Part shown: piece by piece, positions 1-22,716 of the stretch
Layout of the letters: every line of letters starts with the position of its first letter
Numbering within the stretch: the stretch's first letter is position 1
Assembly: GCA_030609055.1 (NCBI GenBank)
Contig: JAUWCZ010000011.1
Span: 1 to 24,000, forward strand
Length of the DNA stretch: 24,000 nucleotides
Reading direction: 5' to 3'
From: Chloroflexota bacterium
GTDB lineage: Bacteria > Chloroflexota > Anaerolineae > Anaerolineales > UBA11858
Made by a program: the position numbers and the translations under genes
Notes under the pieces: generated by a model
The model's database searches: none
What the model was told of the DNA's origin: nothing
The model's input: the letters and a program-made list of their open reading frames with translations, nothing else

Positions 1-672
1 CAATAAAACCATAATCGCTTCCCGGGGCGACCGGAGGGATTCCAATCCATCTAGGAAACGACTCATAATATCCTTCACTTTCTCGCGATATTTTTCGGGA
101 ACCAAACGCTGAATCAGCCAAGCAGCAACTTTTTCCGCCCGTTCTGGAAACATGGCAGCCATCATGAAAACCGCCAGGGCACCAAAAAATGCAGTCGATC
201 CCCATAGCGCCAGAGTCTGGATATTGCCGATAAAGCCTGATGCAGTAGTTAGTGTCGCCAATTCCGGCAGATTTAAAAAGACAAACCCCAACATGACCAC
301 CCCGTCAAAGACCCGCTCCACAACGATGGTCGCCAGGGAAGCAGAAATTGAAATGTCCTGTTTCCGTTTCAGGACCACTGCCCGCAGGAGTTCCCCTGCC
401 CGGGCAGGATAGATATTATTGCCCATATAGCCAATGGCCACAATAGGAAACATCTTTTGTGTGGTAACTGCTTTTACGGGACGCAGGAGATAATGCCAAC
501 GCCAGGCTCTAACCCAGACACCCACAAAATACACCCCCACACCGGGAAGCAGCCACCAGTACCGGGCGGATTTTAATGGTTCCCAAATCTCTTTAAGCCC
601 AAGACCCCGCAGTGCCAGGTAAAGGAATCCAGCACTCAACGCTATTCCAACCCAGAATTGCCAGCGTTTCAT
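1..672 (-). CDS. Partial (N-terminal 224 codons) flippase-like / lysylphosphatidylglycerol-synthase-TM (UPF0104) family membrane protein; continues beyond position 1
   Basis: Absent from the ORF track because it has no stop in the window. The reverse strand from ATG 672-670 is open for all 224 codons to position 1: MKRWQFWVGIALSAGFLYLALRGLGLKEIWEPLKSARYWWLLPGVGVYFVGVWVRAWRWHYLL...GYMGNNIYPARAGELLRA... The multi-pass hydrophobic pattern and the YPAR.GE motif are typical of the UPF0104/TIGR00374 family. The track ORF 152..412(+) is antisense to it. Confidence 0.75.
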   Translation of the reverse strand, partial: MKRWQFWVGIALSAGFLYLALRGLGLKEIWEPLKSARYWWLLPGVGVYFVGVWVRAWRWHYLLRPVKAVTTQKMFPIVAIGYMGNNIYPARAGELLRAVVLKRKQDISISASLATIVVERVFDGVVMLGFVFLNLPELATLTTASGFIGNIQTLALWGSTAFFGALAVFMMAAMFPERAEKVAAWLIQRLVPEKYREKVKDIMSRFLDGLESLRSPREAIMVLL

Positions 673-679
673 GGGGTTC

Positions 680-688
680 ATTCTACCA
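680..688 (-). promoter_or_regulatory. Extended -10 element (TGGTAGAAT) placed 7 nt upstream of the ATG at 672; implies a leaderless mRNA
   Basis: Minus strand reads caTGGTAGAATgaaccccATG. There is no Shine-Dalgarno sequence in the 7-nt gap. Confidence 0.4.
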
Positions 689-786
689 TGAAGTCAAGGA
701 CGACTATTGAGCCTCTCAAACCTGTAAAATCAGTCTATTGTGATGACATATGTAGATCGATGGGGTTTAAAAAAACGGCTGTGAAG

Positions 787-2136
787 ATGTCGATTATAAT
801 TGGAATGATGAACTGGAAAATGGCATTAATTCTGATCGCGGTTCTGGTGGTAGGTGGATTGATCATCAGCTGGCAACTGGCACCTCATGTTGAGGACATT
901 GATCCTGCTGATACATCTTTAGCCGGCAGGCAGCCGCTTAAGATCACTTTTTCTCGCCCAATGGATCCGGATAGTCTCGAATCCAATTTTGACCTCGACC
1001 CATCAATTCGGGGGAAATTTTCCTGGACTGAAATGTTTGACGAAGTAATTTTTACCCCAGATAAACCCTGGCCATCCGGTAAAACCATCTCCGTTAGGAT
1101 ATCCTCTGGAGCCCGATCCAAAATAAGACTGCCCTTATTAAGGAATAGATCCTGGACCATACAAGTAAGTCCCATACTGCTCGCCTACCTGTGGCCAGCT
1201 GACAGCCAAAGCAACCTCTATCTGGTTAATCCAGAAACGGGGGATAATCAGACTCTGACGGCGGAAGACAGTGGTATTTTGGATTACACTGTCACCCCTG
1301 ATGGGTTGGCTATCATCTACAGCGTGCTAAATGAAAACGGGGAAAGTAAGATTGTCTCTCTGGACCTTGTGAGTGGAAAATCCACTCCCGCAATCGAATG
1401 CTCTAGGGGGCTTTGCCGCTCTCCCCGTGTATCTTTCGATGGATCTTTGCTGGCTTATGAATATATCTCGCGGGAGCCTGGGGAGCATCCCGGGATCCGG
1501 GTTTTCGACTTTGATGGTCATATTCATCTAACAATTGGCAACCCGGAAGAATATCTCGATAATCCTCTCTGGTCTCCTGAAGGTTGGCTCTCATATTACA
1601 ACCACACCCGGCAAATGTACGTCTTCTGGAACCCTGAAACTGATCAGGAACTTACTCTTGAGAATGAAACCGGCGGGGATGGAACCTGGTCAGCCGATGG
1701 TCGTTATTTTGTCTGTACAGAAATTTTGTTCATCGGTGAAACCTTGGCGCCCAGGCATCTACTGCTGTATGACGTGACAGAAGAGACACTGGTTGATCTC
1801 TCTCAAGGCAACTTCCTGGAAGACTTAAATCCTATTTTTGCTCCTCAGGGTCTTTCGCTAGCATTCAGCCGGAAATCTCTGGATCCGGCAGAGTGGTCAC
1901 CCGGGCGTCAGCTGTGGCTACTAGACCTTGAGGATAACCAAGCCAAGGCTTTGACTGCCGCTGTCGATTTTCATCATACATCTTTTGCCTGGCATCCCGA
2001 TGGGAATCAGCTGGCCTATGTCCGGTACAACCAGGCAAAACTCTCTGACCCCCCGGAAATTTGGCTGATAAACAGGGACGGCTCGGGGAACCTGCGGTTG
2101 ATCATCAATGCTTTTGCACCTTCTTGGATTCCATAA
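787..2136 (+). CDS. Membrane-anchored protein with an SbsA/Big_5-like Ig domain followed by TolB-type PD40 beta-propeller repeats
   Basis: ORF 658..2136. I prefer the ATG at 787 (or 805/808) because 658 overlaps the divergent gene start at 672 and the TM helix MALILIAVLVVGGLIISW follows. The Ig-like segment is PLKITFSRPMDPDSLESNFDLDP..GKFSWTE..VIFTPDKPWPSGKTISVRIS. Repeated PD40-like motifs are SPDGLAIIYS, SFDGSLLAYE, WSADGRYF, FAPQGLSLAFS and WHPDGNQLAYV. Confidence 0.7.
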   Translation: MSIIIGMMNWKMALILIAVLVVGGLIISWQLAPHVEDIDPADTSLAGRQPLKITFSRPMDPDSLESNFDLDPSIRGKFSWTEMFDEVIFTPDKPWPSGKTISVRISSGARSKIRLPLLRNRSWTIQVSPILLAYLWPADSQSNLYLVNPETGDNQTLTAEDSGILDYTVTPDGLAIIYSVLNENGESKIVSLDLVSGKSTPAIECSRGLCRSPRVSFDGSLLAYEYISREPGEHPGIRVFDFDGHIHLTIGNPEEYLDNPLWSPEGWLSYYNHTRQMYVFWNPETDQELTLENETGGDGTWSADGRYFVCTEILFIGETLAPRHLLLYDVTEETLVDLSQGNFLEDLNPIFAPQGLSLAFSRKSLDPAEWSPGRQLWLLDLEDNQAKALTAAVDFHHTSFAWHPDGNQLAYVRYNQAKLSDPPEIWLINRDGSGNLRLIINAFAPSWIP

Positions 2137-2137
2137 G

Positions 2138-3271
2138 ATGCAGGATTTAAAGGAACTCACCCGTAAAGTTAAACTGGAAGCCAACCGGCTGGGTTTTCCC
2201 CTTGTTGGAGTGACTTCGCCTAATCCTCCTGAACATATCGAATTTTACCGGGAGTGGATCAGCGCGGGGTACCACGGCACCATGGAATGGATGGCATCAA
2301 AAAGGGCTTTGTATCGACGAGCTGATCCAAAAAATATCCTGCCAGAATGCGAATCCATCCTTGTCCTTGGTTCACCTTATCCTTCCCCAAATCTCAATAG
2401 GCTGGATGGAAAAATCGCCTCATATGCCAGCAACCAGGATTATCATGAAGTATTAGAACAGGGCCTGAAGAACATTGTCCAATTCCTGGAAGATTCAATC
2501 GGTGAACCGCTCCCAAACCGCTGGTACACGGATACCGGGCCAATCCTGGAAAAGGATCTAGCTCAAAGGGCCGGTCTGGGTTGGATCGGAAAAAATACCA
2601 CTTTGATCAACCAAAAATACGGCTCGTATTTTTTCCTGGCAGAAATTCTATTGGGGATTAAGTTGAATCCGGATCCTCCATTTTCCTCCCAACTCTGTGG
2701 ATCCTGCACCTCCTGTCTGGATGCCTGTCCCACCAATAGCCTGACTGCACCCTACACCCTGGATGCCAACCTGTGTATTTCGTATCAGACTATCGAAAAC
2801 CGGGAGGTTATACCTGTGGACCTCCGCCCACTTCTCGGTGATTGGATTTTCGGCTGTGATATCTGCCAGCAAGTTTGCCCTTGGAACCAGCACAAACTTA
2901 AGGAAGGAGAAATCCTGGAAGAATTCCTTCCCCGACCGGAACTTACTACTCTGGATCTCATGAAGGAACAGGGGCTTTCCCAGGATGCCTTCAGTTCTAA
3001 ATTTAAAAACAGCCCGATCAAACGGACCAAGCGGAAAGGGTATTTGAGAAATATCGCTATCGCTCTTGGGAATTTAAAATCAACCGGATCGGTACCCACA
3101 TTAGCACAGGCTCTGCAGGACTCGGAACCCCTTGTACGTGGTCATGCCGCCTGGGCACTGGGTGAAATTGGCGGGGAAAAAGCCCAACAAGCTCTTCTGG
3201 AAGCAGCTGCAGATGAGGAAAACCCTCAGGTGAAAGAGGAAATCCTGAGGGCTCAAAGCAAGCTCGCTTAA
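2138..3271 (+). CDS. queG: tRNA epoxyqueuosine(34) reductase QueG
   Basis: N-terminus MQDLKELTRKVKLEANRLGFPLVGVTS...YREWISAGYHGTMEWMA. Two 4Fe-4S ferredoxin motifs are CGSCTSCLDACP and CDICQQVCPWN. The motif CISYQTIE is present, as is a C-terminal HEAT-like PLVRGHAAWALGEIG. The ATG at 2138 lies 1 nt after the upstream TAA (2134-2136). Confidence 0.9.
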   Translation: MQDLKELTRKVKLEANRLGFPLVGVTSPNPPEHIEFYREWISAGYHGTMEWMASKRALYRRADPKNILPECESILVLGSPYPSPNLNRLDGKIASYASNQDYHEVLEQGLKNIVQFLEDSIGEPLPNRWYTDTGPILEKDLAQRAGLGWIGKNTTLINQKYGSYFFLAEILLGIKLNPDPPFSSQLCGSCTSCLDACPTNSLTAPYTLDANLCISYQTIENREVIPVDLRPLLGDWIFGCDICQQVCPWNQHKLKEGEILEEFLPRPELTTLDLMKEQGLSQDAFSSKFKNSPIKRTKRKGYLRNIAIALGNLKSTGSVPTLAQALQDSEPLVRGHAAWALGEIGGEKAQQALLEAAADEENPQVKEEILRAQSKLA

Positions 3272-3293
3272 TCCATTCAACTGTCAAAATAAT

Positions 3294-4169
3294 TCAAGCG
3301 AAGCTGCCCCTGCGCTTCAGCCTTCTTTGGATGGTTTTATAAGACCAGGCCAATACAAAAAACAACGTTGTGGTTAACACTATGGCAGGACCAGAAGCCA
3401 CGTTGACATAATACGAAAGATACAAACCAATCACTCCTGAGGCAGAAGCGATCATCGCCCCCAGAATCATCATCACCGGCAATCGCTTGGTAAGCAGATA
3501 AGCTGCAGCAGCCGGTGTCACCAACATAGCAACCATTAATGCGACACCCACAGCTTGAAAAGAAACCGCTATCGTTAGCGCGATCAGAACTAGCTGGAGA
3601 TACTCAAAAATCCGAGTGGGGATTCTTAGGGTGGCTGCCAATGTGGGATCAAATGTGAGGACCAGGAATTCCTTATAGAATCCTATCACCAGCAGGAGAA
3701 TCACCCCGCTGAACGCAGCAATAGTGATCAATTGGTTGCCAGATACACCCAGTACATCCCCAAATAGAAAATGGGTCAGGTCCACAGTATAACTCCTCAT
3801 CGTGGAGATAATGGCGATACCCAGTGCGAACATGCCAGCAAATATAACTCCAATAGCAGTATCCTCTTTGATTTTTGCACCCCGGCTAACCGCACCTATT
3901 GCCAGCGATACAATCACCGCCGTCCCTGTCCCCCACCAGAAGAGTGTTTCCCGTACCCCACCTGTCACCAGGTAGCCCACGGCAACACCGGGCAAAATCG
4001 CGTGCGCCAGAGCGTCTCCAAAGAATGCCATCCCTCGAAGTACCACGTATACACCCACCACAGCACAAACGATACCAGTTAGCACTGCGGCAGTTATCCC
4101 CCGGACCATGAAGGAGTATTGCAGTGGAGTAAAGATAATTTCAAAAAAGGTCATCATGATCTCCTTCAC
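3294..4169 (-). CDS. znuB: Metal (Zn/Mn-type, ABC-3 family) ABC transporter permease
   Basis: 291 aa and highly hydrophobic, with about 8 TM segments. It looks ABC-3/ZnuB/TroC-like (FGDALAHAILPGVAVGYL). It is the last gene of an SBP-ATPase-permease operon and overlaps the ATPase stop. Zinc specificity is inferred from context only. Confidence 0.8.
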   Translation of the reverse strand: MKEIMMTFFEIIFTPLQYSFMVRGITAAVLTGIVCAVVGVYVVLRGMAFFGDALAHAILPGVAVGYLVTGGVRETLFWWGTGTAVIVSLAIGAVSRGAKIKEDTAIGVIFAGMFALGIAIISTMRSYTVDLTHFLFGDVLGVSGNQLITIAAFSGVILLLVIGFYKEFLVLTFDPTLAATLRIPTRIFEYLQLVLIALTIAVSFQAVGVALMVAMLVTPAAAAYLLTKRLPVMMILGAMIASASGVIGLYLSYYVNVASGPAIVLTTTLFFVLAWSYKTIQRRLKRRGSFA

Positions 4170-4992
4170 AGCAACTGTCGCCTACTGCCAGAGTGTCAAA
4201 TTCACCCTCTACAAAGTGGAGATGCCCCTGGTATGCTTGCAGTAATAGATCCCGGGTGAATACCTCCTCAGGGGATCCAAACCCCAACAATCTTTTGTTC
4301 AGAAGCATCACACGCTGGAATTGTTCCGCAGCCAATCGGAGATCATGCATGGAAATTATGAATGTGACCTCGCGATCCTGGAGCGTCTCCAGGATGGTCA
4401 GGATGCTTTCCTGGGCTGGGACGTCGAGTCCATTAAGGGGCTCATCCAACAGCATCAATTCTGCCTCCTGAGCTAAAGCTCTGGCGATGAACATCCGCTG
4501 CTGTTCCCCGCCAGATAACTCGCTGATTTGGCGTTGGGAAAGATCGGAAAGACCCACAAATTCGATTGAGCGACGGACCACATCCCAGTCATCCGATTGG
4601 GGCCAGAGAAATGGTCCCATTTTGTTAATCCTTCCCATCATCACCACATCGTCGACAGTAGCCGGGAAGGACCAATCCACCTGGCTGCGTTGCGGTACAT
4701 AGGCAATACAGGTATGACCTCCAGGTTCATATCCGGACACCTTTACAACGCCCTCAGCAGGTTCCTGGATTCCAGCAATGACTTCAAATAAGGTTGTTTT
4801 CCCGGCACCATTGGGTCCAACAAGGGCAATTCCTTCCCCGGATGAGATATCGAAGGAAATGTTCTTTAATACGGTCCCGGTTTCATAACGGACAGATACT
4901 TGTTCCAGTACCAGTAACGGGGCATCCGGCTGATGTGGAGCGTACCGCCTGGAAAAAGACTGTCTGCGGAAAGAGTCAATCAGATTTTTCAT
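4141..4992 (-). CDS. znuC: Metal ABC transporter ATP-binding protein
   Basis: Walker A GPNGAGKTT, ABC signature LSGGEQQR, Walker B LMLLDEP and an H-loop MHD. It lies between the SBP and permease genes. Confidence 0.85.
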   Translation of the reverse strand: MKNLIDSFRRQSFSRRYAPHQPDAPLLVLEQVSVRYETGTVLKNISFDISSGEGIALVGPNGAGKTTLFEVIAGIQEPAEGVVKVSGYEPGGHTCIAYVPQRSQVDWSFPATVDDVVMMGRINKMGPFLWPQSDDWDVVRRSIEFVGLSDLSQRQISELSGGEQQRMFIARALAQEAELMLLDEPLNGLDVPAQESILTILETLQDREVTFIISMHDLRLAAEQFQRVMLLNKRLLGFGSPEEVFTRDLLLQAYQGHLHFVEGEFDTLAVGDSCCEGDHDDLF

Positions 4993-13383: not shown

Positions 13384-14385
13384 TTAAACCTTGGTACCAT
13401 AAAAACCGATTGCCTCTCGTACTTCTTTCATCGTCTTAGAAGCGATAACCCGCGCTCTTTTTGCCCCATCCAACAGGACTTCTTTTACAATATCCGGATC
13501 CTTTTCCAGGTCTGCCCGCTTTGAACGGAAAGGCACCAGGTGTTTATTAAGGTTCTTTGCCAGTTTACGTTTGCAGTCCACGCAGCCGATCTCCGCTTTG
13601 CGGCAATCCTGGTTGATCTGGTCGATCTCCTCAGGCGGAGAGAACACCTTATGCAGAGAAAACACATTGCAGACATCGGGGTCACCAGGATCACTACGTC
13701 GGATCCGCTGAGGATCTGTGACCATTTCCATCACTCGCTTTTCTGTTTCTTCAGGGGTCGCTGCTAACTCGATGTGATTATTGAGGCTTTTACTCATCTT
13801 CCGTTCACCGTCAATACCCAGTACTTTGGGAATTTCGGTCACTTTCGCATGGGGTTCTACTAGAATGTTTGTCTGGTAGCGATGGTTAAAGGATCGAACA
13901 ACCTCCCGGGCAAATTCAAGGTGCGGAATCTGGTCTGTGCCAACAGGCACTGTATCTGCTTTATAGAGTAAAATGTCGGCTGACATCAAGACAGGATACC
14001 CAACCAGTCCATAATTCACATTGTCTGGATTATCGCGCACCTTTTCTTTAAATGTCGGCAAAGCAGTGAGCTTCCCCAGAGGAGTTACCATGGAAAGGAT
14101 GGTGTGCAGCTCCATTACCTCCTGCACATGAGATTGGACAAAAATGATGCTTTGTTCCGGATCCATCCCGGCTGCCATCCAATCCAGAGTCATTTCCTGA
14201 GTATTGAGTTCCAGGTCCTTTGTGGTCTCTATTGTTGTTAAAGCATGGACATCCACAATACAGTAAACACACCTGTAATCATCCTGGAGGGCAACATAAT
14301 TTTTGATCGCTCCCAGGTAATTTCCCAAATGCTGCCGCCCGGTCGGCCTGGCACCAGAAAATACTCTGCCCTGCTTTTCAGCCAT
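13384..14385 (-). CDS. trpS: Tryptophan--tRNA ligase
   Basis: 333 aa. HIGH-region variant GARPTGRQHLGNYLGA and KMSKS loop (RKMSKSLNN), with TrpRS-like length and layout. Confidence 0.9.
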   Translation of the reverse strand: MAEKQGRVFSGARPTGRQHLGNYLGAIKNYVALQDDYRCVYCIVDVHALTTIETTKDLELNTQEMTLDWMAAGMDPEQSIIFVQSHVQEVMELHTILSMVTPLGKLTALPTFKEKVRDNPDNVNYGLVGYPVLMSADILLYKADTVPVGTDQIPHLEFAREVVRSFNHRYQTNILVEPHAKVTEIPKVLGIDGERKMSKSLNNHIELAATPEETEKRVMEMVTDPQRIRRSDPGDPDVCNVFSLHKVFSPPEEIDQINQDCRKAEIGCVDCKRKLAKNLNKHLVPFRSKRADLEKDPDIVKEVLLDGAKRARVIASKTMKEVREAIGFYGTKV

Positions 14386-14634
14386 TTATACCTTCTCCTT
14401 AAGATATTCTTCGTACAGCCGCAGCACTTCTTGTGGTTCTATATGCTGTCCTGTCTGAGCTTTCGAATAAATCAAATCATCATTCACAGAAATTTCATAT
14501 CTCCCAGCATCCGAGGGAATTAATGCAATTTCAGAAATATTATTTACATATTCCTTTAAGAAAGCGCCCATCAAACTGATGGCTCTGGGTAAATAGTTTC
14601 AAGGAACACAATATTCAATAGATATCCTATACAT
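14386..14634 (-). CDS. SelW/Rdx-family selenoprotein (CxxU), with in-frame UGA = Sec at 14601-14599
   Basis: ATG 14634 is preceded by AGGAGAAAAGGAAAA. The translation is MYRISIEYCVP-U-NYLPRAISLMGAFLKEYVNNISEIALIPSDAGRYEISVNDDLIYSKAQTGQHIEPQEVLRLYEEYLKEKV. This matches the Rdx pattern IEYCxx[C/U]xxxxRA plus the conserved ALIP..G.FEV.V.G.LI.SK core. The track shows only the part after the TGA (14386..14574, TTG start). The stop TAA (14388-14386) abuts the trpS ATG. Confidence 0.8.
14560..14598 (-). promoter_or_regulatory. Candidate bacterial SECIS hairpin downstream of the UGA
   Basis: The mRNA reads UGA-AACUAUUUACCCAGAG-CCAUCA-GUU-UGAUGG-GCGCU. The perfect 6-bp stem CCAUCA/UGAUGG (14582-14568) has a G/U apical loop starting 22 nt after the UGA. 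It can be extended by GAG/C.C pairs with a bulged G. Confidence 0.5.
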
Positions 14635-14784
14635 TTTTCCTTTTCTCCTGTACCAATAATTTTCCAAAATAGTATATCATAAGCCATCTCGCACTATTGC
14701 CATCCCTGTGAGAGATATCGATAATGCTGAGACTGAAATGACTCCACTTCAACAACGCTCATGTGCTACAATCGAAGTGAACCT

Positions 14785-15630
14785 ATGAGTAAGTTAACCG
14801 ATATCCGCCCCTCACCGTTGGCTGGCCGCTGGTATCCAGCAGATCCGAAAACACTGGCTGACAGCGTGGATGATTTTATCAACCAGGCAGAAATTCCGGA
14901 AATTTCCGGGAAGGTTATTGCCCTTGTTTCTCCCCATGCTGGTCATATGTATTCCGGACAAGTTGCAGGGCATTGTTTTGCTGCAATTCGAGATCTCAGT
15001 CCAGAACTTGTTGTGATCCTTTCTCCATATCATCCATATCACTCTCCTGTTATATTTACCACCACCCATCAGGCCTACGAAACCCCCCTTGGGATAGTAC
15101 CAGTAGATCATGATATGTTAGAGACTGTCGCTAAGGGACTACTTGACAAGACTGGAATAAAACTCTCCCGGGTTACCAACGATGGAGAACATGCGGTAGA
15201 GATCCTGCTTCCTTTTTTCCAACGCGCCCTGGCGGAAGAATTCCGTCTGTTGCCGCTGATGATCCGGCAACAGGACTCGGATGTAATGCAAGCGCTGGGG
15301 GACATCCTGGCTGAAATTCTGGCAGAAAGGAATGTCTTTTTGACTGCCAGTACTGACCTGTCCCACAATAAATCGGCAGAGAAAGCCCTGGGTCTTGACC
15401 AGACTATCATTGATCACATCATCTCCTTGGATCCGGATGGCCTCTACCAGGCTCAAAGATCGTTCACCGGGGAAGCTTGCGGGTTAGATGCTCTGGCTGC
15501 TCTACTCTGGGCTGCTAAAAGTCGAGGTTCCGTTACTGCCCATCATTTGCACTACGCCCATTCTGGTGATATTACCGGAGATAATACCGGTGTAGTTGGG
15601 TACGCAGCTGCAGTGCTCACTAGAGAATAA
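14785..15630 (+). CDS. MEMO1-family protein (AmmeMemoRadiSam system protein B)
   Basis: RPSPLAGRWYPADPKTLADSVDDFI...VSPHAGHMYSGQVAGHCF and the C-terminal VVGYAAAV are typical of the family. ATG 14785 is preferred over the track start 14761. TGcTACAAT (14764-14772) lies 12 nt upstream. Confidence 0.8.
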   Translation: MSKLTDIRPSPLAGRWYPADPKTLADSVDDFINQAEIPEISGKVIALVSPHAGHMYSGQVAGHCFAAIRDLSPELVVILSPYHPYHSPVIFTTTHQAYETPLGIVPVDHDMLETVAKGLLDKTGIKLSRVTNDGEHAVEILLPFFQRALAEEFRLLPLMIRQQDSDVMQALGDILAEILAERNVFLTASTDLSHNKSAEKALGLDQTIIDHIISLDPDGLYQAQRSFTGEACGLDALAALLWAAKSRGSVTAHHLHYAHSGDITGDNTGVVGYAAAVLTRE

Positions 15631-15646
15631 CTCATTGTAATCACCT

Positions 15647-16966
15647 ATGATTTGGAACTTTCTGTTCATACTCCTGCTGGTTGCCTTAAACGGTTTTTTT
15701 GTGGCAACAGAATTTGCGGTCATCACAGCCCGAAAAACCCGTGTCCGCCTACAGGCTGAGGCGGGTAATGCTGCCGCAAAGCAGGTATTAATTTGGTTGG
15801 ATAATCCGGAAGCCCGGGACCGTTTAATTGCAGCTGCCCAATTAGGAATCACCATTGTCAGTCTGGCATTGGGCGCGGTGGGGGAAAACACATTTGAAGT
15901 CTTGCTGAAACCGGTTTTTCATTCCCTTGAGATATCGTTTCAGTGGAGCCGAATCGAACCGGTCCTGACTGCGCTGCCACTGATATTTTCTTTAATCATT
16001 GTCACCAGCTTGCATGTTGTCCTTGGTGAACAGGTCCCAAAAGTAGCCGCTCTTGAATCTCCAGAAAAGATTGCGTTCTTCTCTGCTCAACCTATGAAGT
16101 GGTTCAATACAATATTTACCTGGTTTGTAGACATTTTAGATTGGGCTACTCATAGCATACTACGCTTGGTAGGGGTAAAAAGAACCGGGGGCAGCCATTC
16201 GATTATCTATACCGTAGATGAATTAAAGGAGATCCTGGTTGAATCGGAACAAGTTGGGACGATTGAATCCCCTCAACGGGAAATGATGCATGCGATTTTT
16301 GACTTCAACCGATTGCTTGTGCGTCAGGTGATGCTCCCACGGACAGAGATTATCGCCTTTCCAGTGGAGATCCCCTTGGATGAAAGTATTCAGACTGCTG
16401 TGCAAAACCGTTTTACAAGATTTCCTGTATTTGAGGGTGATCTAGACAATATCATCGGCGTGGTTCATATTAAAGATTTGCTCCGCGCTCAACAAGACAA
16501 GAGCGGTGAATCCTTGACTATGGGTTCTCTTGCCCGTGAACCACTGTTTATCCCCGAGAGCAGCACGGTTAGAGCGTTGTTGGGTCATTTCCGCACACAC
16601 AGCCTTCATATTGCCATCGTCCTGGATGAATACGGCGGTACCGCCGGTTTAATTACTTTGGAAGATGCCCTGGAGGAGATTGTAGGAGAAATCAGCGATC
16701 CATTTGATATAGTTGCTCCGGAGATTCAGCGCATTAACCAGAATACCGTCCTGGTGGACGGATTGACCGCCATCGATGAAGTTAACCAGACTCTGGGAAC
16801 CAAATTCAATGATCCAAATTACGACACCATCGCTGGATATTTATTAGGTCATCTGGATCGGATACCTGTCCAGGGAGAAACCATCATGCTCGCAGGGGGA
16901 ATCCAACTGCAGGTAGCAGCCATGGATGGTTTGAGAATCTCCAAAGTCCGCATACAGGGTGTGTGA
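15647..16966 (+). CDS. CNNM/DUF21-CBS-CorC_HlyC family protein (hemolysin-family, putative Mg/Co efflux-type)
   Basis: The N-terminal DUF21 TM domain has the ATEFA motif ([12 protein letters not shown]). This is followed by a CBS pair and a C-terminal CorC_HlyC-like domain ([19 protein letters not shown]). Confidence 0.85.
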
Positions 16967-19538
16967 TCTCATGATGTTGATTGAGCAAAAAAACCCATCC
17001 TACGCCCGGATTGCGGTAAATGTCCCTCATGTCCGGGGAGTATATGATTATCACCTACCTTCGTCCATCCAAAAGTTAGTAAAGATCGGCCAATTGGTTA
17101 CTGTGCCATTTGGACGGCAAACCGCACAGGGGATCATTCTGGAATTTCCCTCCACACCGGAAGTGCCAAAAACGAAAGATATCCAAACTATTCTAGATCT
17201 CCTGCCGGTGGTAACGCCGTACCAAATCAAACTCGCAGAAAGGATATCTCTGGAAACCATCTCCCCGTTGGGAGAGACTTTGCATGCCATGCTCCCGGCA
17301 GGGTTAAGCATCAAAGGGGACAGTGAATACCGGCTTACAGAGCGCAGCCTGGCACTGCTGGAAGCTGGCGAACCGCTTTTACCAGAGCTAACATCGTCAC
17401 AAAATCACCTCCTGGAATTATTAATTCAACGAGGTCCCCTACGGGGTAGGCAGATAAATCGGGCTCTTCCGTATAAAAATTGGCGGAAAACTGCCGGCTC
17501 TCTTGAGCGTCGGGGAGTGATCAGTAGGCAATCAACCCTGGGTACTCCGACCGTCAAGCCCAAAATGGAACGGCGTCTCAAGTTTATTGGTGAAATGGCA
17601 GAAGCGATAGCCCAGATGGATACACTGGCTAAACCTGGGTTCCCGGAAGCATTAACCCGCAGACAGGCTGTGGTACACCTGGTAATGGAAAGTGATATCG
17701 AGCTTCCCTTATCCGAGATTTATCGCCAGACAGACAGCAATCTGAACGATCTCAAGCAGCTGGTACAACGAGGTCTGGTACAGATCCTGGAAATACCTGT
17801 TCTACGCGACCCGCTAGAACAGGTAACGGTCCGACCAACAAAAAAATTGAATCTTACCGAGGATCAGCAGATTACCTGGGATGCCATCCTGTCCTCATTT
17901 GAAGAGAAAAATCCTGCGCCGTTCCTTCTCCATGGTGTAACCGGATCAGGAAAAACAGAACTCTACCTGCAGGCAGTGGAACATGTCCTTGCTGGGGGTA
18001 AACAGGCAATCATCCTGGTTCCGGAAATCGCCCTTACCCCACAAACTGTCAGCCGGTTCATGAGTCGTTTCCCGGAGTGGGTTGGTGTGCTGCACTCCGA
18101 ACTCTCTCAGGGTGAACGATACGATACCTGGCGGCTAGCTCGCCAGGGAAAGCTCTCCGTTATAGTTGGTCCCCGAAGCGCATTATTCACTCCCTTTCCA
18201 AACCTTGGTTTAATTGTGGTAGATGAATGCCATGACGACTCCTACTACCAGGGTGAAATTTCCCCCCGCTACCACGCTGTCGAGTCAGCTGTCGCCTATG
18301 CAGCCATCACCGGATCAGTATGCATCCTGGGGTCAGCCACACCCGATGTTACCAGTATGTATCATGCATCCCACGGCGAGTGGCGTTTATTAACACTTCC
18401 CAAACGAATTCTGGCCCACCGCGATTCCATTCAAATCCAGCTCAAACAATCAGGCCGAGAGCCCGAAACCTTACGTTATCAACCACTGCGAAAGGATCTC
18501 CATAGTGCAGAGATGCCCCGGGTGGAACTCGTCGATATGAGAACAGAACTCAAAGAGGGCAACCGCTCAATCTTCAGCCGTGCTTTGCAGGATTCCCTTA
18601 TTTCAACGCTTGAAAAAGATGAGCAGGCAATTTTGTTTTTGAACCGGCGTGGAAGTGCCACATATGTATTCTGCAGGGATTGTGGTTATGCCATGCGCTG
18701 TCCCCGCTGCCATACCTCCCTCACTGCCCACCAATCGGACAGCTCTCTCCGCTGTCACCACTGTGGATACAAGAGAAAAATCCCTCAAACATGTCCCTCA
18801 TGTGGGAGTGCCCGGATACGTCATTTAGGAACCGGCACCGAGCAGGTTGAATCTACCCTTCAGAAACTAATACCGGGAGTACGTACCATTCGTTGGGACA
18901 GAGACACCACCAGGAAAAAAGGTGCCCACTGGGAGATTATGGAGCAGTTTTCTTCTCACCAGGCAGATGTTTTGATTGGGACCCAGATGTTAGCGAAAGG
19001 ACTGGATCTTCCCTTGGTCACTTTCGTGGGCAGTGTGCTGGCTGATACTGGGCTGCACTTGCCTGATTACCGGGCTTCCGAGCGAACCTTTCAGGTGCTG
19101 ACCCAGGTAGCAGGCAGGGCAGGACGCAGCCCCCTGGGAGGAAAGGTCATCCTGCAAACCTTTGAGCCGGATCATTATGTGATTCAGGCTGCCTCACAGC
19201 ACAACTACAGGGATTTTTATCAGCAGGAGATTGAATATCGACGGGATCTTGGGTATCCCCCCTTTGTTAAGCTGATCAGATTGGAAATTCGGGCAAGGGA
19301 TTCAAAGGCTGCCGAAGCTGAGGGGCAGGCATATGCCGCAGCGCTGAAGGGCTGGATCAAAACAGAAGGTTATCGGGCAACAACTCTGGTTGGACCGGTT
19401 CCACCTTATTTTACGCGCATTCGAGGGGAAACACGCTGGCAGATCCTGCTGCGCGGGCCCAACCCGGCGGACCTGGTACGGGATCATCCTCCTGGTCCAG
19501 AATGGATCATCGAGGTTAATCCACCGGTCATCCTTTAA
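16959..19538 (+). CDS. priA: Primosomal protein N' (replication restart helicase PriA)
   Basis: Walker A GVTGSGKTE, DECHD box, and the Cys-rich zinc region CRDCGYAMRCPRCHTSLTAH...CHHCGY...CPSCGS. The N-terminus YARIAVNVP...YDYHLP is typical. The GTG at 16959 overlaps the upstream stop; the ATG at 16971 is an equally plausible start. Confidence 0.9.
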   Translation: MCDLMMLIEQKNPSYARIAVNVPHVRGVYDYHLPSSIQKLVKIGQLVTVPFGRQTAQGIILEFPSTPEVPKTKDIQTILDLLPVVTPYQIKLAERISLETISPLGETLHAMLPAGLSIKGDSEYRLTERSLALLEAGEPLLPELTSSQNHLLELLIQRGPLRGRQINRALPYKNWRKTAGSLERRGVISRQSTLGTPTVKPKMERRLKFIGEMAEAIAQMDTLAKPGFPEALTRRQAVVHLVMESDIELPLSEIYRQTDSNLNDLKQLVQRGLVQILEIPVLRDPLEQVTVRPTKKLNLTEDQQITWDAILSSFEEKNPAPFLLHGVTGSGKTELYLQAVEHVLAGGKQAIILVPEIALTPQTVSRFMSRFPEWVGVLHSELSQGERYDTWRLARQGKLSVIVGPRSALFTPFPNLGLIVVDECHDDSYYQGEISPRYHAVESAVAYAAITGSVCILGSATPDVTSMYHASHGEWRLLTLPKRILAHRDSIQIQLKQSGREPETLRYQPLRKDLHSAEMPRVELVDMRTELKEGNRSIFSRALQDSLISTLEKDEQAILFLNRRGSATYVFCRDCGYAMRCPRCHTSLTAHQSDSSLRCHHCGYKRKIPQTCPSCGSARIRHLGTGTEQVESTLQKLIPGVRTIRWDRDTTRKKGAHWEIMEQFSSHQADVLIGTQMLAKGLDLPLVTFVGSVLADTGLHLPDYRASERTFQVLTQVAGRAGRSPLGGKVILQTFEPDHYVIQAASQHNYRDFYQQEIEYRRDLGYPPFVKLIRLEIRARDSKAAEAEGQAYAAALKGWIKTEGYRATTLVGPVPPYFTRIRGETRWQILLRGPNPADLVRDHPPGPEWIIEVNPPVIL

Positions 19539-19585
19539 AGAGGGGTTTCTTCAGTTTAGGGGGAGATTTACTAACAGAAAATTTT

Positions 19586-19810
19586 TCACCTGCACTGATT
19601 CACAAAATCTTCAATGCGATCGAGCGCCTTTTCAATCTTTTCGTAGCGTGTTGCATAGGAGCAGCGTACAAATCCTTTTCCGCCCGCGCCAAAAGCCGAA
19701 CCTGGAACGACTGCTACGCGTTCTTCCTGAAGCAGATTCTTAGCAAATAATTCATCATCCAAGGTTCCGACAATATCAAAGAACATCCTGATACCTGATG
19801 GTTTTTTATC
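19586..19810 (-). pseudogene. 3' relic of a class-I (AspC-type) PLP aminotransferase gene
   Basis: ...PSGIRMFFDIVGTLDDELFAKNLLQEERVAVVPGSAFGAGGKGFVRCSYATRYEKIEKALDRIEDFV reads like an aminotransferase C-terminus (VAVVPGSAFG...R.SYA). Only about 72 codons remain. The rest of track ORF 19586..19900 reads into the inserted DNA. Confidence 0.7.
19795..19805. repeat. Left copy of the 11-bp direct repeat bracketing the insert (CTGATGGTTTT)
   Basis: 10/11 identical to 22668-22678. Both copies sit in the same codon phase of the disrupted gene. Confidence 0.6.
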
Positions 19811-19849
19811 TTGCATGATGAATACTATCAAATATCCAGTCAGTGGAAT

Positions 19850-19875
19850 TGTGGGAATATACGTATTTTCCCACA
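19850..19875. promoter_or_regulatory. 26-bp near-perfect palindrome (candidate operator) upstream of the Fic promoter
   Basis: TGTGGGAA-TATACGTATT-TTCCCACA, with 24 of 26 positions symmetric. GAATATACG recurs at 19884-19892, abutting the -35. Confidence 0.45.
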
Positions 19876-19893
19876 GATTGCGCGAATATACGC

Positions 19894-19921
19894 TTGACAA
19901 ATTGGATTAATCGTATATAAT
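19894..19921 (+). promoter_or_regulatory. Consensus sigma-70 promoter of the Fic gene
   Basis: TTGACA (19894-19899), a 16-nt spacer, TATAAT (19916-19921), then a GGAGG SD (19942-19946) 6 nt before ATG 19953. Confidence 0.65.
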
Positions 19922-19952
19922 CAATGATAGTGAGAATATTCGGAGGAATAAG

Positions 19953-21044
19953 ATGCGACTGATACTTGGGGTCGATATGGATAACGTTGAAATAAAAAAG
20001 GATTTAGGTTTTATTGAGAGCCGCCTTTATGTAGCGAGAAGCCTGATACCGAAAGAATATGAGATTGCTTTCCAGGAAACTGCTCACTATATTAGCGCTC
20101 ACACCTCCACTGCGATTGAAGGGAATCCTTTGGGAGAAGAAGAAGCAATGAATATACTCGCAGAAAAACCCAATCCGATTGCCCCGGATCAACTTGAGAA
20201 AATAAATCTTGATGAAGCATATGAATTTATGTTCTTTCTTGCATCAGACAAAACAACAATAATAGACGAGGGAATCATCCGAACAATTAATTCTATGATA
20301 TTAAAGGGATTGCCCGAATCACAAGCGCGTGCAAGGGGTCAATATAGAGTTGGACCATCTAAAATCGTAGACTCAGTTACCAGGGAACGAAGATACCTTC
20401 CCCCCAAGTCAACATGGGTTCCAACCTTGATGAAGAATTTTGTTCTTGATATTGATGAGTGGATCCAGAATTATCCTGGTCCTGTGGCAGCAGCTCTTGC
20501 CCACTTTGGGTTAATATCAATTCATCCATTTGAGGATGGGAACGGTCGAACCGCACGATTGATTGCTGATATGATTTTGCACATAACTGATTGTTCTGCA
20601 GATGGCATGGTTTCAGTAAGTCAAGAAATCCATAATCAACTTGGTACCTACTATAAAACACTTCACAAAGTTCAAGGAGAAAATTATAAAGAAGATGTTG
20701 ATGTTACAGATTTCATCATCTTTCATACAGGCGCACTTGCTTCCGCTGCCATATCGTTGGAGGAAAAAGCAATCCATTTTAGTCGATTACGAGACAATAT
20801 CACTAACCAATTGAGTGGTCTTCTTAATGAACGCCAAGTAACAGGATTAATGTATATGGTAGACATTGGTCAAATTTCTACATCACGATATGCAAGGTTA
20901 ACAGATAGTTCACAGAACACTGCTTTGACAGACTTGAATCCATTAGTCGAGCTTGGTTTAGTAAATCGTATTGGAGGAGGGAAGAACACAAGATATATTC
21001 TGGATCCATCTTCTAAGATAGGTAATGATGAGATAGTTGATTAG
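19953..21044 (+). CDS. Fic-domain protein (AMPylase-type), class II with N-terminal inhibitory motif and C-terminal winged-helix
   Basis: Fic motif HPFEDGNGRTAR (aa 191-202, nt 20523-20558). Inhibitory-helix motif S-TAI-E-G, i.e. [ST]xxxE[GN] (aa 52-57, nt 20106-20123). The C-terminal region LTDLNPLVELGLVNRIGGGKNTRYIL is wHTH-like. Confidence 0.85.
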   Translation: MRLILGVDMDNVEIKKDLGFIESRLYVARSLIPKEYEIAFQETAHYISAHTSTAIEGNPLGEEEAMNILAEKPNPIAPDQLEKINLDEAYEFMFFLASDKTTIIDEGIIRTINSMILKGLPESQARARGQYRVGPSKIVDSVTRERRYLPPKSTWVPTLMKNFVLDIDEWIQNYPGPVAAALAHFGLISIHPFEDGNGRTARLIADMILHITDCSADGMVSVSQEIHNQLGTYYKTLHKVQGENYKEDVDVTDFIIFHTGALASAAISLEEKAIHFSRLRDNITNQLSGLLNERQVTGLMYMVDIGQISTSRYARLTDSSQNTALTDLNPLVELGLVNRIGGGKNTRYILDPSSKIGNDEIVD

Positions 21045-21068
21045 GATAAATTTCAGAAAGGTACAATG

Positions 21069-21112
21069 AGCATCCTCAAGATTTGTATTCTATTCATAGT
21101 ATTGAGGATGCT
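21069..21112 (+). terminator. Long hairpin after the Fic gene (probable terminator; also a possible IS insertion landmark)
   Basis: AGCATCCTCAA (21069-21079) and TTGAGGATGCT (21102-21112) form a perfect 11-bp stem with a 22-nt loop, followed by ACTTTTGATT. Confidence 0.5.
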
Positions 21113-21222
21113 ACTTTTGATTGCATCTCCATAATTATTTTCGGGTGATACTATGAAAGCGTTCCTGCCGTAGTGCTAAACTAAGAGTAGTGACAAACCA
21201 GTTTAGCAAAAGGAGGAACGCT

Positions 21223-22266
21223 ATGTATCCATTTTACCTTGGAATTGACCTGCATCTCAAGCGAACTTACCTGGTACTGATGAACGCCGAGGGGGAAGTG
21301 ATCGATAAACGGCGCCTGAAGAACACTGAGATGGCATCCTATATTTCCAAAAATATACCCAAAGAAACCTATGCGGTGATGGAGGCAACCCGGAACTGGC
21401 CCTTCTTCTATGATCTTTTAGAGAAGCATGTTGAGCGGGTTGAGCTGGCGCATGCCAAGGGTGTCCGGATGATCGCGGAAGCAGCAGTGAAGACGGACCA
21501 GATCGATGCCTCAGTGCTGGCGCATTTGGCAAGGTTAAACTTTTTGCCAATCGCCTATGCCGCGCCCAAGGAGATTCGTGATTTACGGCAGCATCTGCGC
21601 TACCGGGAATGGTTGATAGACGAACGGCGGCGGGGGAAGAACCGGATCCATGCCGTTTTGGCGGGATACAACCAGGCCTCCCCTGTGACAGATCTGTTTG
21701 GCCGCTCAGGACGGGAATGGCTGAAGGAGATAGCTGAGAAGGAGCTGCGCCCTACATCCCGACGAGTGGTCCTCGAGACGCTGACTTTGATCGATCAGCT
21801 GAATGCTCAGATCAAGGAATTGGCGAAGGATATCCCGCTACCAGAGGAGCTGAAGCCAAAGGCTGAGCTGCTGATGAGTATGCCGGGTATAGGTAAGCTG
21901 CTGTCAGCGGTGATCCTGGCAGAGATCGGTGACATCATCCGATTCAAATCGCCCAAGGCATTGTGCAACTGGGCTGGATTGACACCCCGAGTGCATAAAA
22001 GCGATACAGTGGTGAGACATGGACGGATCTCTAAGCAGGGTTCACGTTACTTGCGATCTGCGATGGTGTGTGCTGCTATGACGGCATGTCGGATCAGTCC
22101 ACGTTGGTACCGGGTGTATGAGAACCTGGCCCGACGGATTGGGCGCAGAGGAGCCAAAGTGGCAGTGGGGCGACGGTTATTGACGGTGGTTTATTTTATG
22201 TTGAAACGAAACCAACCGTATGAAGAAGATTATGAGCAGCGACGAGTAGCTGAACAGGGAGCCTGA
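21223..22266 (+). CDS. IS110-family transposase/recombinase (DEDD RuvC-like N-domain + Transposase_20 C-domain)
   Basis: The N-terminus MYPFYLGIDLHLKRTYLV has the DEDD first Asp, followed by AVMEATRNW. The C-terminal motifs are LMSMPGIGKLLSAVILAEIGDIIRFKSPKALCNWAGLTPRVHKSD...GRISKQGSRYLR. An AGGAGG SD (21211-21216) lies 6 nt upstream of ATG 21223. The track start GTG 21190 is less likely. Confidence 0.9.
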   Translation: MYPFYLGIDLHLKRTYLVLMNAEGEVIDKRRLKNTEMASYISKNIPKETYAVMEATRNWPFFYDLLEKHVERVELAHAKGVRMIAEAAVKTDQIDASVLAHLARLNFLPIAYAAPKEIRDLRQHLRYREWLIDERRRGKNRIHAVLAGYNQASPVTDLFGRSGREWLKEIAEKELRPTSRRVVLETLTLIDQLNAQIKELAKDIPLPEELKPKAELLMSMPGIGKLLSAVILAEIGDIIRFKSPKALCNWAGLTPRVHKSDTVVRHGRISKQGSRYLRSAMVCAAMTACRISPRWYRVYENLARRIGRRGAKVAVGRRLLTVVYFMLKRNQPYEEDYEQRRVAEQGA

Positions 22267-22667
22267 CCCAACTGCTGGTTATCAAAAACCGATCTGGTGA
22301 ATGAGGCCCCTGGGATAAACCGAATGGTATAGTGTGCCTGATCTTGAATAAGATCTGCTTGAATGGAATAGCTCAAGTTGAGCACGGTTAGATGCATTGG
22401 ATCAAGGTTGCTGCTGATAGGGATTCACCAGGAAAAAAAGAACAGAAAGATAAGGATCGAGACAGATAAGAGTATGTCTCGGGAGGTATGATTGTGTTGT
22501 CTTTATTGAAAAAAGGAACCCTCTTGACGAACGCTTTCTTAGATGCAGTTTGGGTGCAAATCGGATTGAACTTGTGGAAACAATGGAATTTATGGACTAA
22601 ATCATCCCTATCGAGTGGACACAATGGACATAATGGACCCCTGTGTAAAGGATAAACTCCTTCCGAT
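22267..22667 (+). ncRNA. Candidate structured non-coding tail of the IS110-family element (possible bridge/seek-type guide RNA); extent and strand not established
   Basis: 401 nt without a convincing CDS. A 9-bp long-range pairing CTGGTGAAT/ATTCACCAG (22294-22302 / 22423-22431) encloses the hairpin GATCTT-GAAT-AAGATC (22340-22355) and the palindrome GCTCAAGTTGAGC (22371-22383). Another hairpin is GAGACA..TGTCTC (22459-22480). There are short matches to the insert termini (see findings). Confidence 0.25.
22574..22638 (+). repeat. Two imperfect 24-bp direct repeats near the right end of the insert
   Basis: GTGGAAACAATGGAATTTATGGAC (22574-22597) versus GTGGACACAATGGACATAATGGAC (22615-22638). 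They are 20/24 identical with starts 41 bp apart. Confidence 0.7.
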
Positions 22668-22678
22668 CTGATTGTTTT
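22668..22678. repeat. Right copy of the 11-bp direct repeat bracketing the insert (CTGATTGTTTT)
   Basis: 10/11 identical to 19795-19805. Confidence 0.6.
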
Positions 22679-22716
22679 AAAGTGGCAACACGCTTGGCAA
22701 TGACATCACGGCTCAT
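22669..22716 (-). pseudogene. 5' relic (16 codons) of the disrupted aminotransferase gene, with intact SD and ATG
   Basis: Minus strand caGGAGtcaaaATG (ATG 22716) is followed by MSRDVIAKRVATLKQS. This resembles the aminotransferase N-terminal pattern (L/I)(S/A)xRVxxLxPS. The reading frame then runs into insert DNA and stops at 22597. Confidence 0.5.

Follow-up and report, generated by a model that had tools for sequence, protein, structure and literature searches.

The stretch of DNA analyzed here (the window) comprises 24,000 nt of contig JAUWCZ010000011.1 from a Chloroflexota bacterium (Anaerolineales; UBA11858; assembly GCA_030609055.1). Near its right end lies a 2.86-kb insert, bracketed by two copies of an 11-bp repeat, that splits the start of an aminotransferase gene. 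Only two genes are present between the repeat copies, encoding a Fic protein and an IS110-family transposase respectively, and base composition differs among the parts (GC 0.384 in the Fic module, 0.505 in the insertion sequence (IS), and 0.477 in the host DNA). An earlier inspection of the letters by themselves (the sequence-only reading) had reported the repeat coordinates, these two genes, the Shine-Dalgarno sequence with its ATG at 22716 in the right flank, and the coding sequence of the left flank, all of which are indeed present. It proposed that the IS either carries Fic within an extended left end, or is nested in, and now the only recombinase of, an unrecognized Fic-carrying element. 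We lean toward a different reading, in which the insert is a three-part mosaic in a decaying aminotransferase pseudogene, made up of a Fic cassette, a small non-coding repeat (referred to as VE), and the IS nested within VE, and in which the 11-bp repeat represents hybrid sites of the attachment (att) type. The features of the locus are listed below in window coordinates; L numbers (L001 to L102) denote sequences fetched for comparison, 397 kb of DNA in all.

19586 to 19762, minus strand: aminotransferase remnant, last ~59 codons and stop (PF00155 positions 312-361; 99.3% identical to L019; aligns with L102)
19763 to 19805, minus strand: aminotransferase codons 14-27 (KPSGIRMFFDIVGT), joined at 19762/19763 to the C-terminal remnant (comparison with L018, L019, and L102)
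19795 to 19805, plus strand: left repeat copy CTGATGGTTTT, codons K-P-S; the ancestral version by comparison with L102 and L018
19806 to 21117, plus strand: Fic module, a self-contained expression cassette of low GC, with its right boundary to VE somewhere in 21045-21117
19835 to 19846, plus strand: motif TCCAGTCAGTGG, 30 nt inside the left end of the insert
19894 to 19921, plus strand: Fic promoter of sigma-70 type (TTGACA-16-TATAAT, 12/12 consensus), flanked by three GAATAT(A/T)CG repeats (19848-19942)
19953 to 21044, plus strand: Fic protein, 363 aa (Pfam Fic, 9.5e-15)
21070 to 21111, plus strand: hairpin of 10-11 bp followed by TACTTTT (fold -18.4 kcal/mol, z = -1.8)
21118 to 21147, plus strand: VE-left, TGATTG and a variable stub ending TTTTCGGG-TG, colinear with IS-free VE copies; TGATTG is repeated at 22669-22674
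21148 to 22545, plus strand: IS proper, 1,398 bp (one TG counted), IS1111 group of the IS110 family; TG at 21146-7 and 22544-5, at the limits of homology
21155 to 21164, plus strand: left subterminal inverted repeat GAAAGCGTTC, 7 nt inside the IS end
21223 to 22266, plus strand: transposase gene, 347 aa, intact; ATG at 21223 after AAGGAGG; PF01548 and PF02371
22266 to 22300, plus strand: predicted seekRNA guide region, from guide-flank covariation in 35 elements
22529 to 22538, plus strand: right subterminal inverted repeat GAACGCTTTC, 5 nt before TG
22546 to 22668, plus strand: VE-right, variable and non-coding, with two triplets of the 9-nt unit RTGGAMNNN (22574-97 and 22615-38)
22668 to 22678, plus strand: right repeat copy CTGATTGTTTT, codons K-Q-S, with C-TG-ATT as at many VE right junctions
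22679 to 22716, minus strand: aminotransferase codons 1-13, Shine-Dalgarno sequence directly upstream (own sequence and comparison with L018 and L102)

The IS is the sole part of the insert with direct evidence of mobility. Relatives of its transposase were available at ~30 usable loci (57-95% protein identity), mostly in metagenome-assembled genomes of Anaerolineales. DNA homology to these relatives begins at 21137-21145 and the common core ends at 22547. Within these limits, TG directly precedes ATA... in 52 distinct left junctions, TTAGA-TG is found in 51 distinct right junctions, and both are invariant; the IS therefore runs from 21148 to 22545, and not from 21113 to 22667, the sub-segment named in the sequence-only reading. 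The two subterminal inverted repeats match at 10/10 positions and leave terminal extensions of ATACTAT and TTAGA, the flanks follow the consensus gGTG/CAantnnggtg, and there is no target duplication beyond the shared TG. Ends at the outer TGATTG (21118 and 22669) were also considered, and were dropped given the subterminal repeats, the invariant TG junctions, and the existence of IS-free VE copies. Fic was found beside none of the related IS copies (0 among ~30 relatives in other contexts), whose common part is just 21148-22545. The sequence-only reading had itself named Fic-less copies ending at other coordinates as an observation that would tell against its proposal, and these ~30 copies are of that kind. 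Fic thus does not appear to be a cargo of the IS, which is an ordinary 1.4-kb RNA-guided element.

The transposase combines the DEDD (RuvC-like) N-domain and the Transposase_20 C-domain within the 330-350 aa typical of the family (PF01548, 9.8e-18; PF02371, 8.5e-28), and scores 236 bits against the NCBIfam model NF033542 (transpos_IS110, "IS110 family RNA-guided transposase"; cutoff 140). Its C-terminal motif reads GLTPRVHKSD, in which the serine of the GL-P----S(T)G motif (PMC11187229) is present and D stands where G is usual. A non-coding region of 262 nt (22267-22528) follows the gene, vs. 68 nt on its 5' side. All the sequence-level family tests that gave a verdict agree, and we count the IS among the IS1111 group, as a new member; looking up the exact transposase protein returned no record. 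If the IS circularizes, the predicted junction is ...CTTTCTTAGA-TG-ATACTATGAAAG..., i.e., CTTTCTTAGATG joined to ATACTATGAAAG. Among the relatives, L016 (positions 1-4400; CAVYHT010000024.1) has a full copy of the related IS in tandem with several partial ones, the units being joined as TTAGA-TG-CAACTGTGG-TG-ATAC, which looks like either repeated insertion at the second GG-TG-CA site of the target or local tandem expansion.

Guide segments were sought by covariation in the 35 elements for which both junctions were available, by matching the 280 nt that precede the right subterminal repeat to an element's own flanks and to crossed flanks. Complementarity of 8 nt or more to an element's own right flank (core G plus RT), the T match, was found in 10/35 elements vs. 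17/1,156 crossed pairs, and identity of 7 nt or more to its own left flank plus TG, the B match, in 16/35 vs. 115/1,178. The positions of these matches are fixed, with T just after the stop codon and B 25-30 nt farther 3'. Examples of the former are L029 (RT GCAGTTCCG with CGGAACTGC), L035 (GCAACCGTG with CACGGTTGC), and L057 (TGCTTCTTTA with TAAAGAAGCA), and of the latter L060 (TTATTGTG) and L061 (CGTCATTG). In the window, the right flank GCAGTT(T)GGGT finds its complement in the T segment ACCCAACTGC (22266-75), and the left flank TCGGGTG has a same-sense counterpart in the B segment TCTGGTG (22294-300). The order of T 5' of B is the one described for IS1111 seekRNAs (PMC11187229). The guides fit the flanks at 21147/21148 and 22545/22546, and neither T nor B matches the outer 11-bp junctions. 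This pattern indicates that the IS is steered by a predicted seekRNA encoded just 3' of the transposase gene. Folding of the whole 3' region was uninformative (z = -0.01). Two further matches were noticed in the conserved seekRNA region: ATCAAAAACC within 22281-22296 is complementary to TTTTGAT (21114-20) and to GGTTTTT (19800-06), and the conserved non-coding stretch CCGATCTG (22289-96) is identical, in the window only, to the end of VE-right (last 8 nt plus TG). Because the region is of low complexity and conserved, both may be due to chance.

The sequence that hosts the IS is itself a repeated unit. Outside the IS core, the relatives share a short variable left stub and a ~120-nt variable right stretch rich in RTGGAM repeats, and the distance from the IS to the right end of VE is always ~120 nt. 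VE copies without an IS are present in L029 (position 2164), L030 (2166), L080 (1686), and L098 (455), where they read ...TTTCT-GG-TG-CA-N7-GGTGCAA..., and the two VE halves of the window, when joined in silico, align colinearly with them; the IS target site inside VE is TTTCNGG-TG-CARTTNNGGTG. The suggestion of the sequence-only reading that the IS sits inside another element is thus correct as far as nesting in VE is concerned, while its view of the IS as the only recombinase of a Fic-carrying unit is not borne out. In the window, VE plus IS is flanked by exact TGATTG (21118-23 and 22669-74), L004 has TGATT on both sides, and C-TG-ATT is found at 16/20 aligned VE right junctions. Two independent assemblies that cover the left flank, L001 (ENA) and L002 (Logan), end at 21147, and the Logan contig that covers the right flank (L020) starts at 22544. 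An allele lacking 21148-22543 (...CGGG-TG-CAGTTTGGG...) would give these contig breaks whatever the k-mer size, which suggests that an IS-less allele coexists in the samples. Its junction is predicted to be CGGGTG joined to CAGTTTGGG, and that of a VE circle would be TTCCGATCTGATTG joined to CATCTCC.

Other features of VE are less readily interpreted. The RTGGAMNNN triplets are kept across VE copies as a pattern and not as a sequence. A search for a guide inside VE against its own right flank was negative: the window, L004, and L006 each have a 7-nt match at a similar position, and these 3/23 VE copies are not above crossed controls (5%). No Rfam family was found for the window, for the IS non-coding region plus VE, or for IS-free VE. 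Several VE copies abut, on their right, a tRNA-like 5' half-gene that has a -10 box of its own (GCACCCGTAGCTCAATGGATAGAGCRTCTGACTTCGAAT) and ends at the anticodon loop (L006:2420-2470, L033:1581-1625, L030:2294-2340, and L080:1814-1860). tRNA genes as VE targets were considered and rejected: ARAGORN finds no tRNA there, Rfam gives nothing, and no 3' half is present across VE. In L009, L029, L030, L038, L051, L080, L093, and L098, which have unrelated DNA upstream, the variable part of VE follows a conserved block AATCGAG(C/T)(C/T)GCCAA(A/T)CCAGT-TGATT; this block is either the left end of VE or a repeated target's left arm.

Fic lies left of VE as a separate low-GC cassette equipped with a promoter, a hairpin, and operator-like repeats of its own. 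The Fic domain (PF02661) scores 55.7 bits (cutoff 24); the active-site motif HPFEDGNGRTAR at residue 191 agrees with HxFx(D/E)GNGRxxR, an inhibitory-type motif STAIEG is found at residue 52, and the C-terminus is a DIP2311-like winged helix (PF22168). The palindromes around the promoter suggest possible autoregulation by this C-terminal domain, and any function assigned to this Fic is likewise proposed from its motifs. Palindromic repeats resembling GAATATTC also occur in the Fic promoters of L021 (3900-4000) and L022 (1040-1137). The hairpin at 21070-21111 is probably the Fic terminator, and it could also belong to the left part of VE. The closest Fic homologs are at most 73% identical and are solitary genes near tRNA, toxin-antitoxin, or rve genes, without IS110; at the DNA level, homology to the nearest such locus (L021) spans just 19886-21012. 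An integron gene cassette was also considered and is not supported, as inspection of the letters of 21045-21125 shows no attC site with an RYYYAAC...GTTRRRY pair of inverse-core and core sites.

The host gene is read on the minus strand, with the right flank reading SD-ATG(22716)-MSRDVIAKRVATLKQS and the left flank KPSGIRMFFDIVGT. Orthologs in L018 and L102 read MSREFIA(E/A)RVATLKPSGIRK(F/I)FDIVATM, more exactly MSREFIAERVATLKPSGIRKFFDIVATM in L018 and MS*EFIAARVATLKPSGIRKIFDIVATM (stop at codon 3) in L102. Codons 14-16 are therefore truly duplicated in the window and in the same phase, as had been claimed from the letters. The two repeat copies agree at 10/11 positions, and the 11-mer occurs four times in the window when up to one mismatch is allowed, against 0.71 expected. 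A third 10/11 copy, CTGATTGTTCT, lies on the same strand inside the Fic coding sequence (20587-20597) and is probably there by chance (~0.05 expected per 6 kb).

Excision of the insert joins the two flanks in frame, as the sequence-only reading had predicted, and its expectation of a restored host gene ends there: the product is an 85-aa stump of codons 1-27 plus the last ~60 codons (PF00155 positions 300-361 of 361), with ~300 codons already deleted. Over 19198-19762, L019 and the window are 99.3% identical; L019 then runs into the missing middle of the aminotransferase, which places the junction of this in-gene deletion at 19762/19763. With such a large internal deletion, excision would not restore a functional gene. 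The L019 copy carries an in-frame stop, that of L018 a different in-frame deletion (N31 + C39), and that of L102 the stop at codon 3 plus a frameshift. The same aminotransferase, located between PriA and NTP-transferase, is thus inactivated in four related lineages, each by a different lesion (nonsense, frameshift, and two distinct in-frame internal deletions). It is a pseudogene decaying clade-wide and a neutral landing place.

An uninterrupted form of the site is found in other species. L102, a 149-kb contig of GCA_004196255.1 with DNA 75-78% identical to the window, has the gene order Esterase, Peptidase_M3, NTP-transferase, aminotransferase, PriA, CNNM, Memo, with a full-length aminotransferase without Fic, VE, or IS. 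The L018 site is likewise uninterrupted, and by nucleotide identity (75-78%) both genomes belong to species other than that of the window. The empty site that the sequence-only reading had asked for in related strains accordingly exists, in synteny, at this distance. Both L102 and L018 read AA(G/A) CCA TCA (K-P-S) at the insertion site, and therefore the left copy (TGATGG, P codon) is ancestral and the right copy (TGATTG, Q codon) derived, which in turn means that chromosomal sequence extends through 19805. Between the L001 strain and the window, 31 differences are present in 13953-19596 and zero in 19597-21147, a stretch spanning the pseudogene remnant, the Fic cassette, and VE-left; this pattern is compatible with recent between-strain spread of the segment or with a local sweep.

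Based on these observations, we propose that the 11-bp repeat may consist of two hybrid attachment sites left by a single reciprocal site-specific crossover within TTTT. One partner would be the chromosome (...ACC TGATGG TTTT AAAG...) and the other a circle with ...TGATTG TTTT TTATC... beside Fic; a crossover at this position would yield both observed junctions, the mismatch included, without any later mutation. The T of the right copy, which creates C-TG-ATT, and the presence of TCCAGTCAGTGG near the left end hint at a possible link between the Fic segment and VE: elsewhere in the 397 kb of fetched DNA, AGTCAGTGG is found only 6 nt outside VE right ends, in L004 and L024. The circle could have held Fic alone, or Fic plus VE. 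With Fic alone, the new right junction GCTACTTT-TGATTG-TTTTAAAGTGGC would be a VE-type site that VE entered later. Entry of the IS into VE would be a separate event, and the IS may still be polymorphic at this locus. The model predicts TTCCGATCTGATTGTTTT joined to TTATCTTGC for a circle of Fic plus VE (with or without IS), GCTACTTTTGATTGTTTT joined to TTATCTTGC for a Fic-only circle, GGATGCTACTTTTGATTGTTTTAAAGTGG for an allele with Fic and without VE, and GATACCTGATGGTTTTAAAGTGGC for the empty site. A further idea, to which we attach little probability, is that VE is a non-autonomous small element like ssr9, moved in trans by an IS1111-type recombinase or a dedicated integrase, that serves as the obligatory landing pad of the IS and is able to take along the adjoining Fic, which would make a three-tier nested system.

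Several observations weigh against the mosaic with att-type junctions. No empty site of the Fic-bearing unit was found in the same species, nor was a circular form or a second copy of this unit found. The exact Fic protein is known at this locus only (exact-protein look-up). An upstream copy of the right-junction 11-mer was present at 0/23 other VE loci, which means that VE does not generally capture cargo. In the window, VE could begin on its left anywhere in 21045-21118. The window guides are imperfect for the present site (B 6/7; T with a 1-nt gap), and the IS-free allele rests on contig ends, for which a k-mer explanation (k = 31, repeat from 21118) fits the left end alone. A metagenome scan with the right flank, able to detect empty, Fic-only, and occupied alleles, gave 0 matches, and searches with the NTP-transferase and the 39-aa N-terminal ORF as queries led to one Logan contig only.

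Three other explanations were weighed against the mosaic. That a Fic-bearing transposon, now lost or a remnant, made a 10-bp target duplication (TGATGGTTTT), with VE and then the IS hitting the right copy and a G-to-T change arising there, appears unlikely. Such a duplication would span chromosomal codons 14-16 on both sides, as is seen, VE and IS are independent elements elsewhere, and the Fic module has a 15/19 inverted repeat (19813-31 and 21093-111) set in from its ends by 7 and 6 nt. However, this terminal repeat is not significant (p = 0.11) and no transposase of such a kind is present. The extra point mutation would have to chance on the VE-type TGATT, in strains that differ by just ~0.5% and not at all in 19597-21147. 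The VE-flank motif at 19835-46 is left unexplained, and more steps are needed than in the att model.

It is still more doubtful that an IS110-family element with an extended left end moved Fic as its own cargo in one 2.86-kb unit, through its RNA-guided recombinase and a half-matched pseudo-end, despite the repeat that brackets both genes, the absence of any other recombinase gene inside, the 8-nt match of CCGATCTG to the end of VE-right plus TG, and the description of cargo-bearing IS110 loci formed via half-site matches (bioRxiv 10.64898/2026.08.14.744561). Subterminal repeats and guide-flank covariation define the IS ends at 21148/22545, the outer junctions fit neither the T nor the B guide, and left-side cargo occurs in 0 of ~30 relatives. 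Alignments that looked for a degenerate IS left end in the sequence following the left repeat gave no significant score (p = 0.16 in local and 0.12-0.28 in global alignment), and the 8-nt match sits in a conserved scaffold and in the window only. Since the relatives lack Fic and the guides fit the inner VE flanks, the extended left end that had been offered as one of two options is unsupported. Highly improbable, finally, is a fortuitous repeat in a region that recombination with foreign DNA, illegitimate or homologous, rebuilt while the pseudogene decayed. The differing lesions in four lineages and the third 10/11 copy within Fic at 20587 speak for it, but the two outer copies share a codon phase, sit exactly at the N-terminal split with a three-codon overlap backed by orthologs, and have a chance expectation of 0.05 per 6 kb per strand.

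The IS closely resembles the seekRNA-guided IS of the IS1111 group, such as ISEc11, ISPa11, and ISKpn4 (Siddiquee et al., 2024; PMC11187229). Shared features are the DEDD plus Transposase_20 recombinase (347 aa here), subterminal inverted repeats with short terminal extensions, a long 3' non-coding region in which the top-strand match lies 5' of the bottom-strand match, and a sequence-specific target without duplication beyond the shared dinucleotide. Unlike these IS, which target REP, attC, or transposon ends, the IS of the window has its target within a small variable repeat, its serine is followed by D instead of G (GLTPRVHKSD), and it is known from sequence alone. A second relevant system, from Pseudomonas putida, pairs ISPpu9 with the small-RNA module ssr9 (Pares-Guillen et al., 2025; PMC12288879). 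There, as here, an IS110-family transposase module is accompanied by a small non-coding module that also occurs alone in the genome, and the modules are bounded by a shared dinucleotide where recombination occurs. However, the two modules of ISPpu9/ssr9 are in tandem, whereas the transposase module of the window is nested inside the small element; the dinucleotide is TG instead of AG, no common boxes flank both modules, and VE is at most a candidate mobile element.

Expanded, cargo-bearing IS110 loci formed via half-matched ends have also been described (Hu, Xie, Yang, and Rubin, 2026; bioRxiv 10.64898/2026.08.14.744561). Like these, the present locus joins an IS110-family gene to non-IS DNA, is bounded with respect to an empty site in a related genome, and contains no other transposase. 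In contrast to them, its outer boundary fits neither the IS donor ends nor the guides, its whole body was not found in other contexts, and the cargo is a single Fic gene instead of plasmid-derived resistance DNA. As for Fic, the class II AMP-transferases that Engel et al. reportedly distinguished in 2012 are said to carry an N-terminal inhibitory helix. The Fic of the window is like this class in its HPFxDGNGRxxR motif, in the (S/T)xxxE(G/N) motif N-terminal to it, and in being a solitary gene in an accessory region, and differs in its C-terminal DIP2311-like winged helix and in the palindromic GAATATTC repeats of its promoter. Less usual in the light of these comparisons are a cognate target of an IS1111-type element inside another small repeat, and a protein-coding cassette joined to that repeat by an att-like junction.

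The locus illustrates that an IS110-family gene and a passenger-like gene within one repeat are insufficient for calling cargo: the subterminal repeats, the guide-flank covariation, and the IS-free targets place the true IS end 1.3 kb from the outer repeat. It provides a clean natural example of a nested RNA-guided IS1111-type element, and such nesting can mislead the annotation of both element ends and guide RNAs. If the outer crossover was due to another enzyme, the locus would be a commonplace accumulation of accessory DNA within a dead gene. If the same recombinase made it, the locus would offer a small and tractable case of gene capture for the IS110 family.

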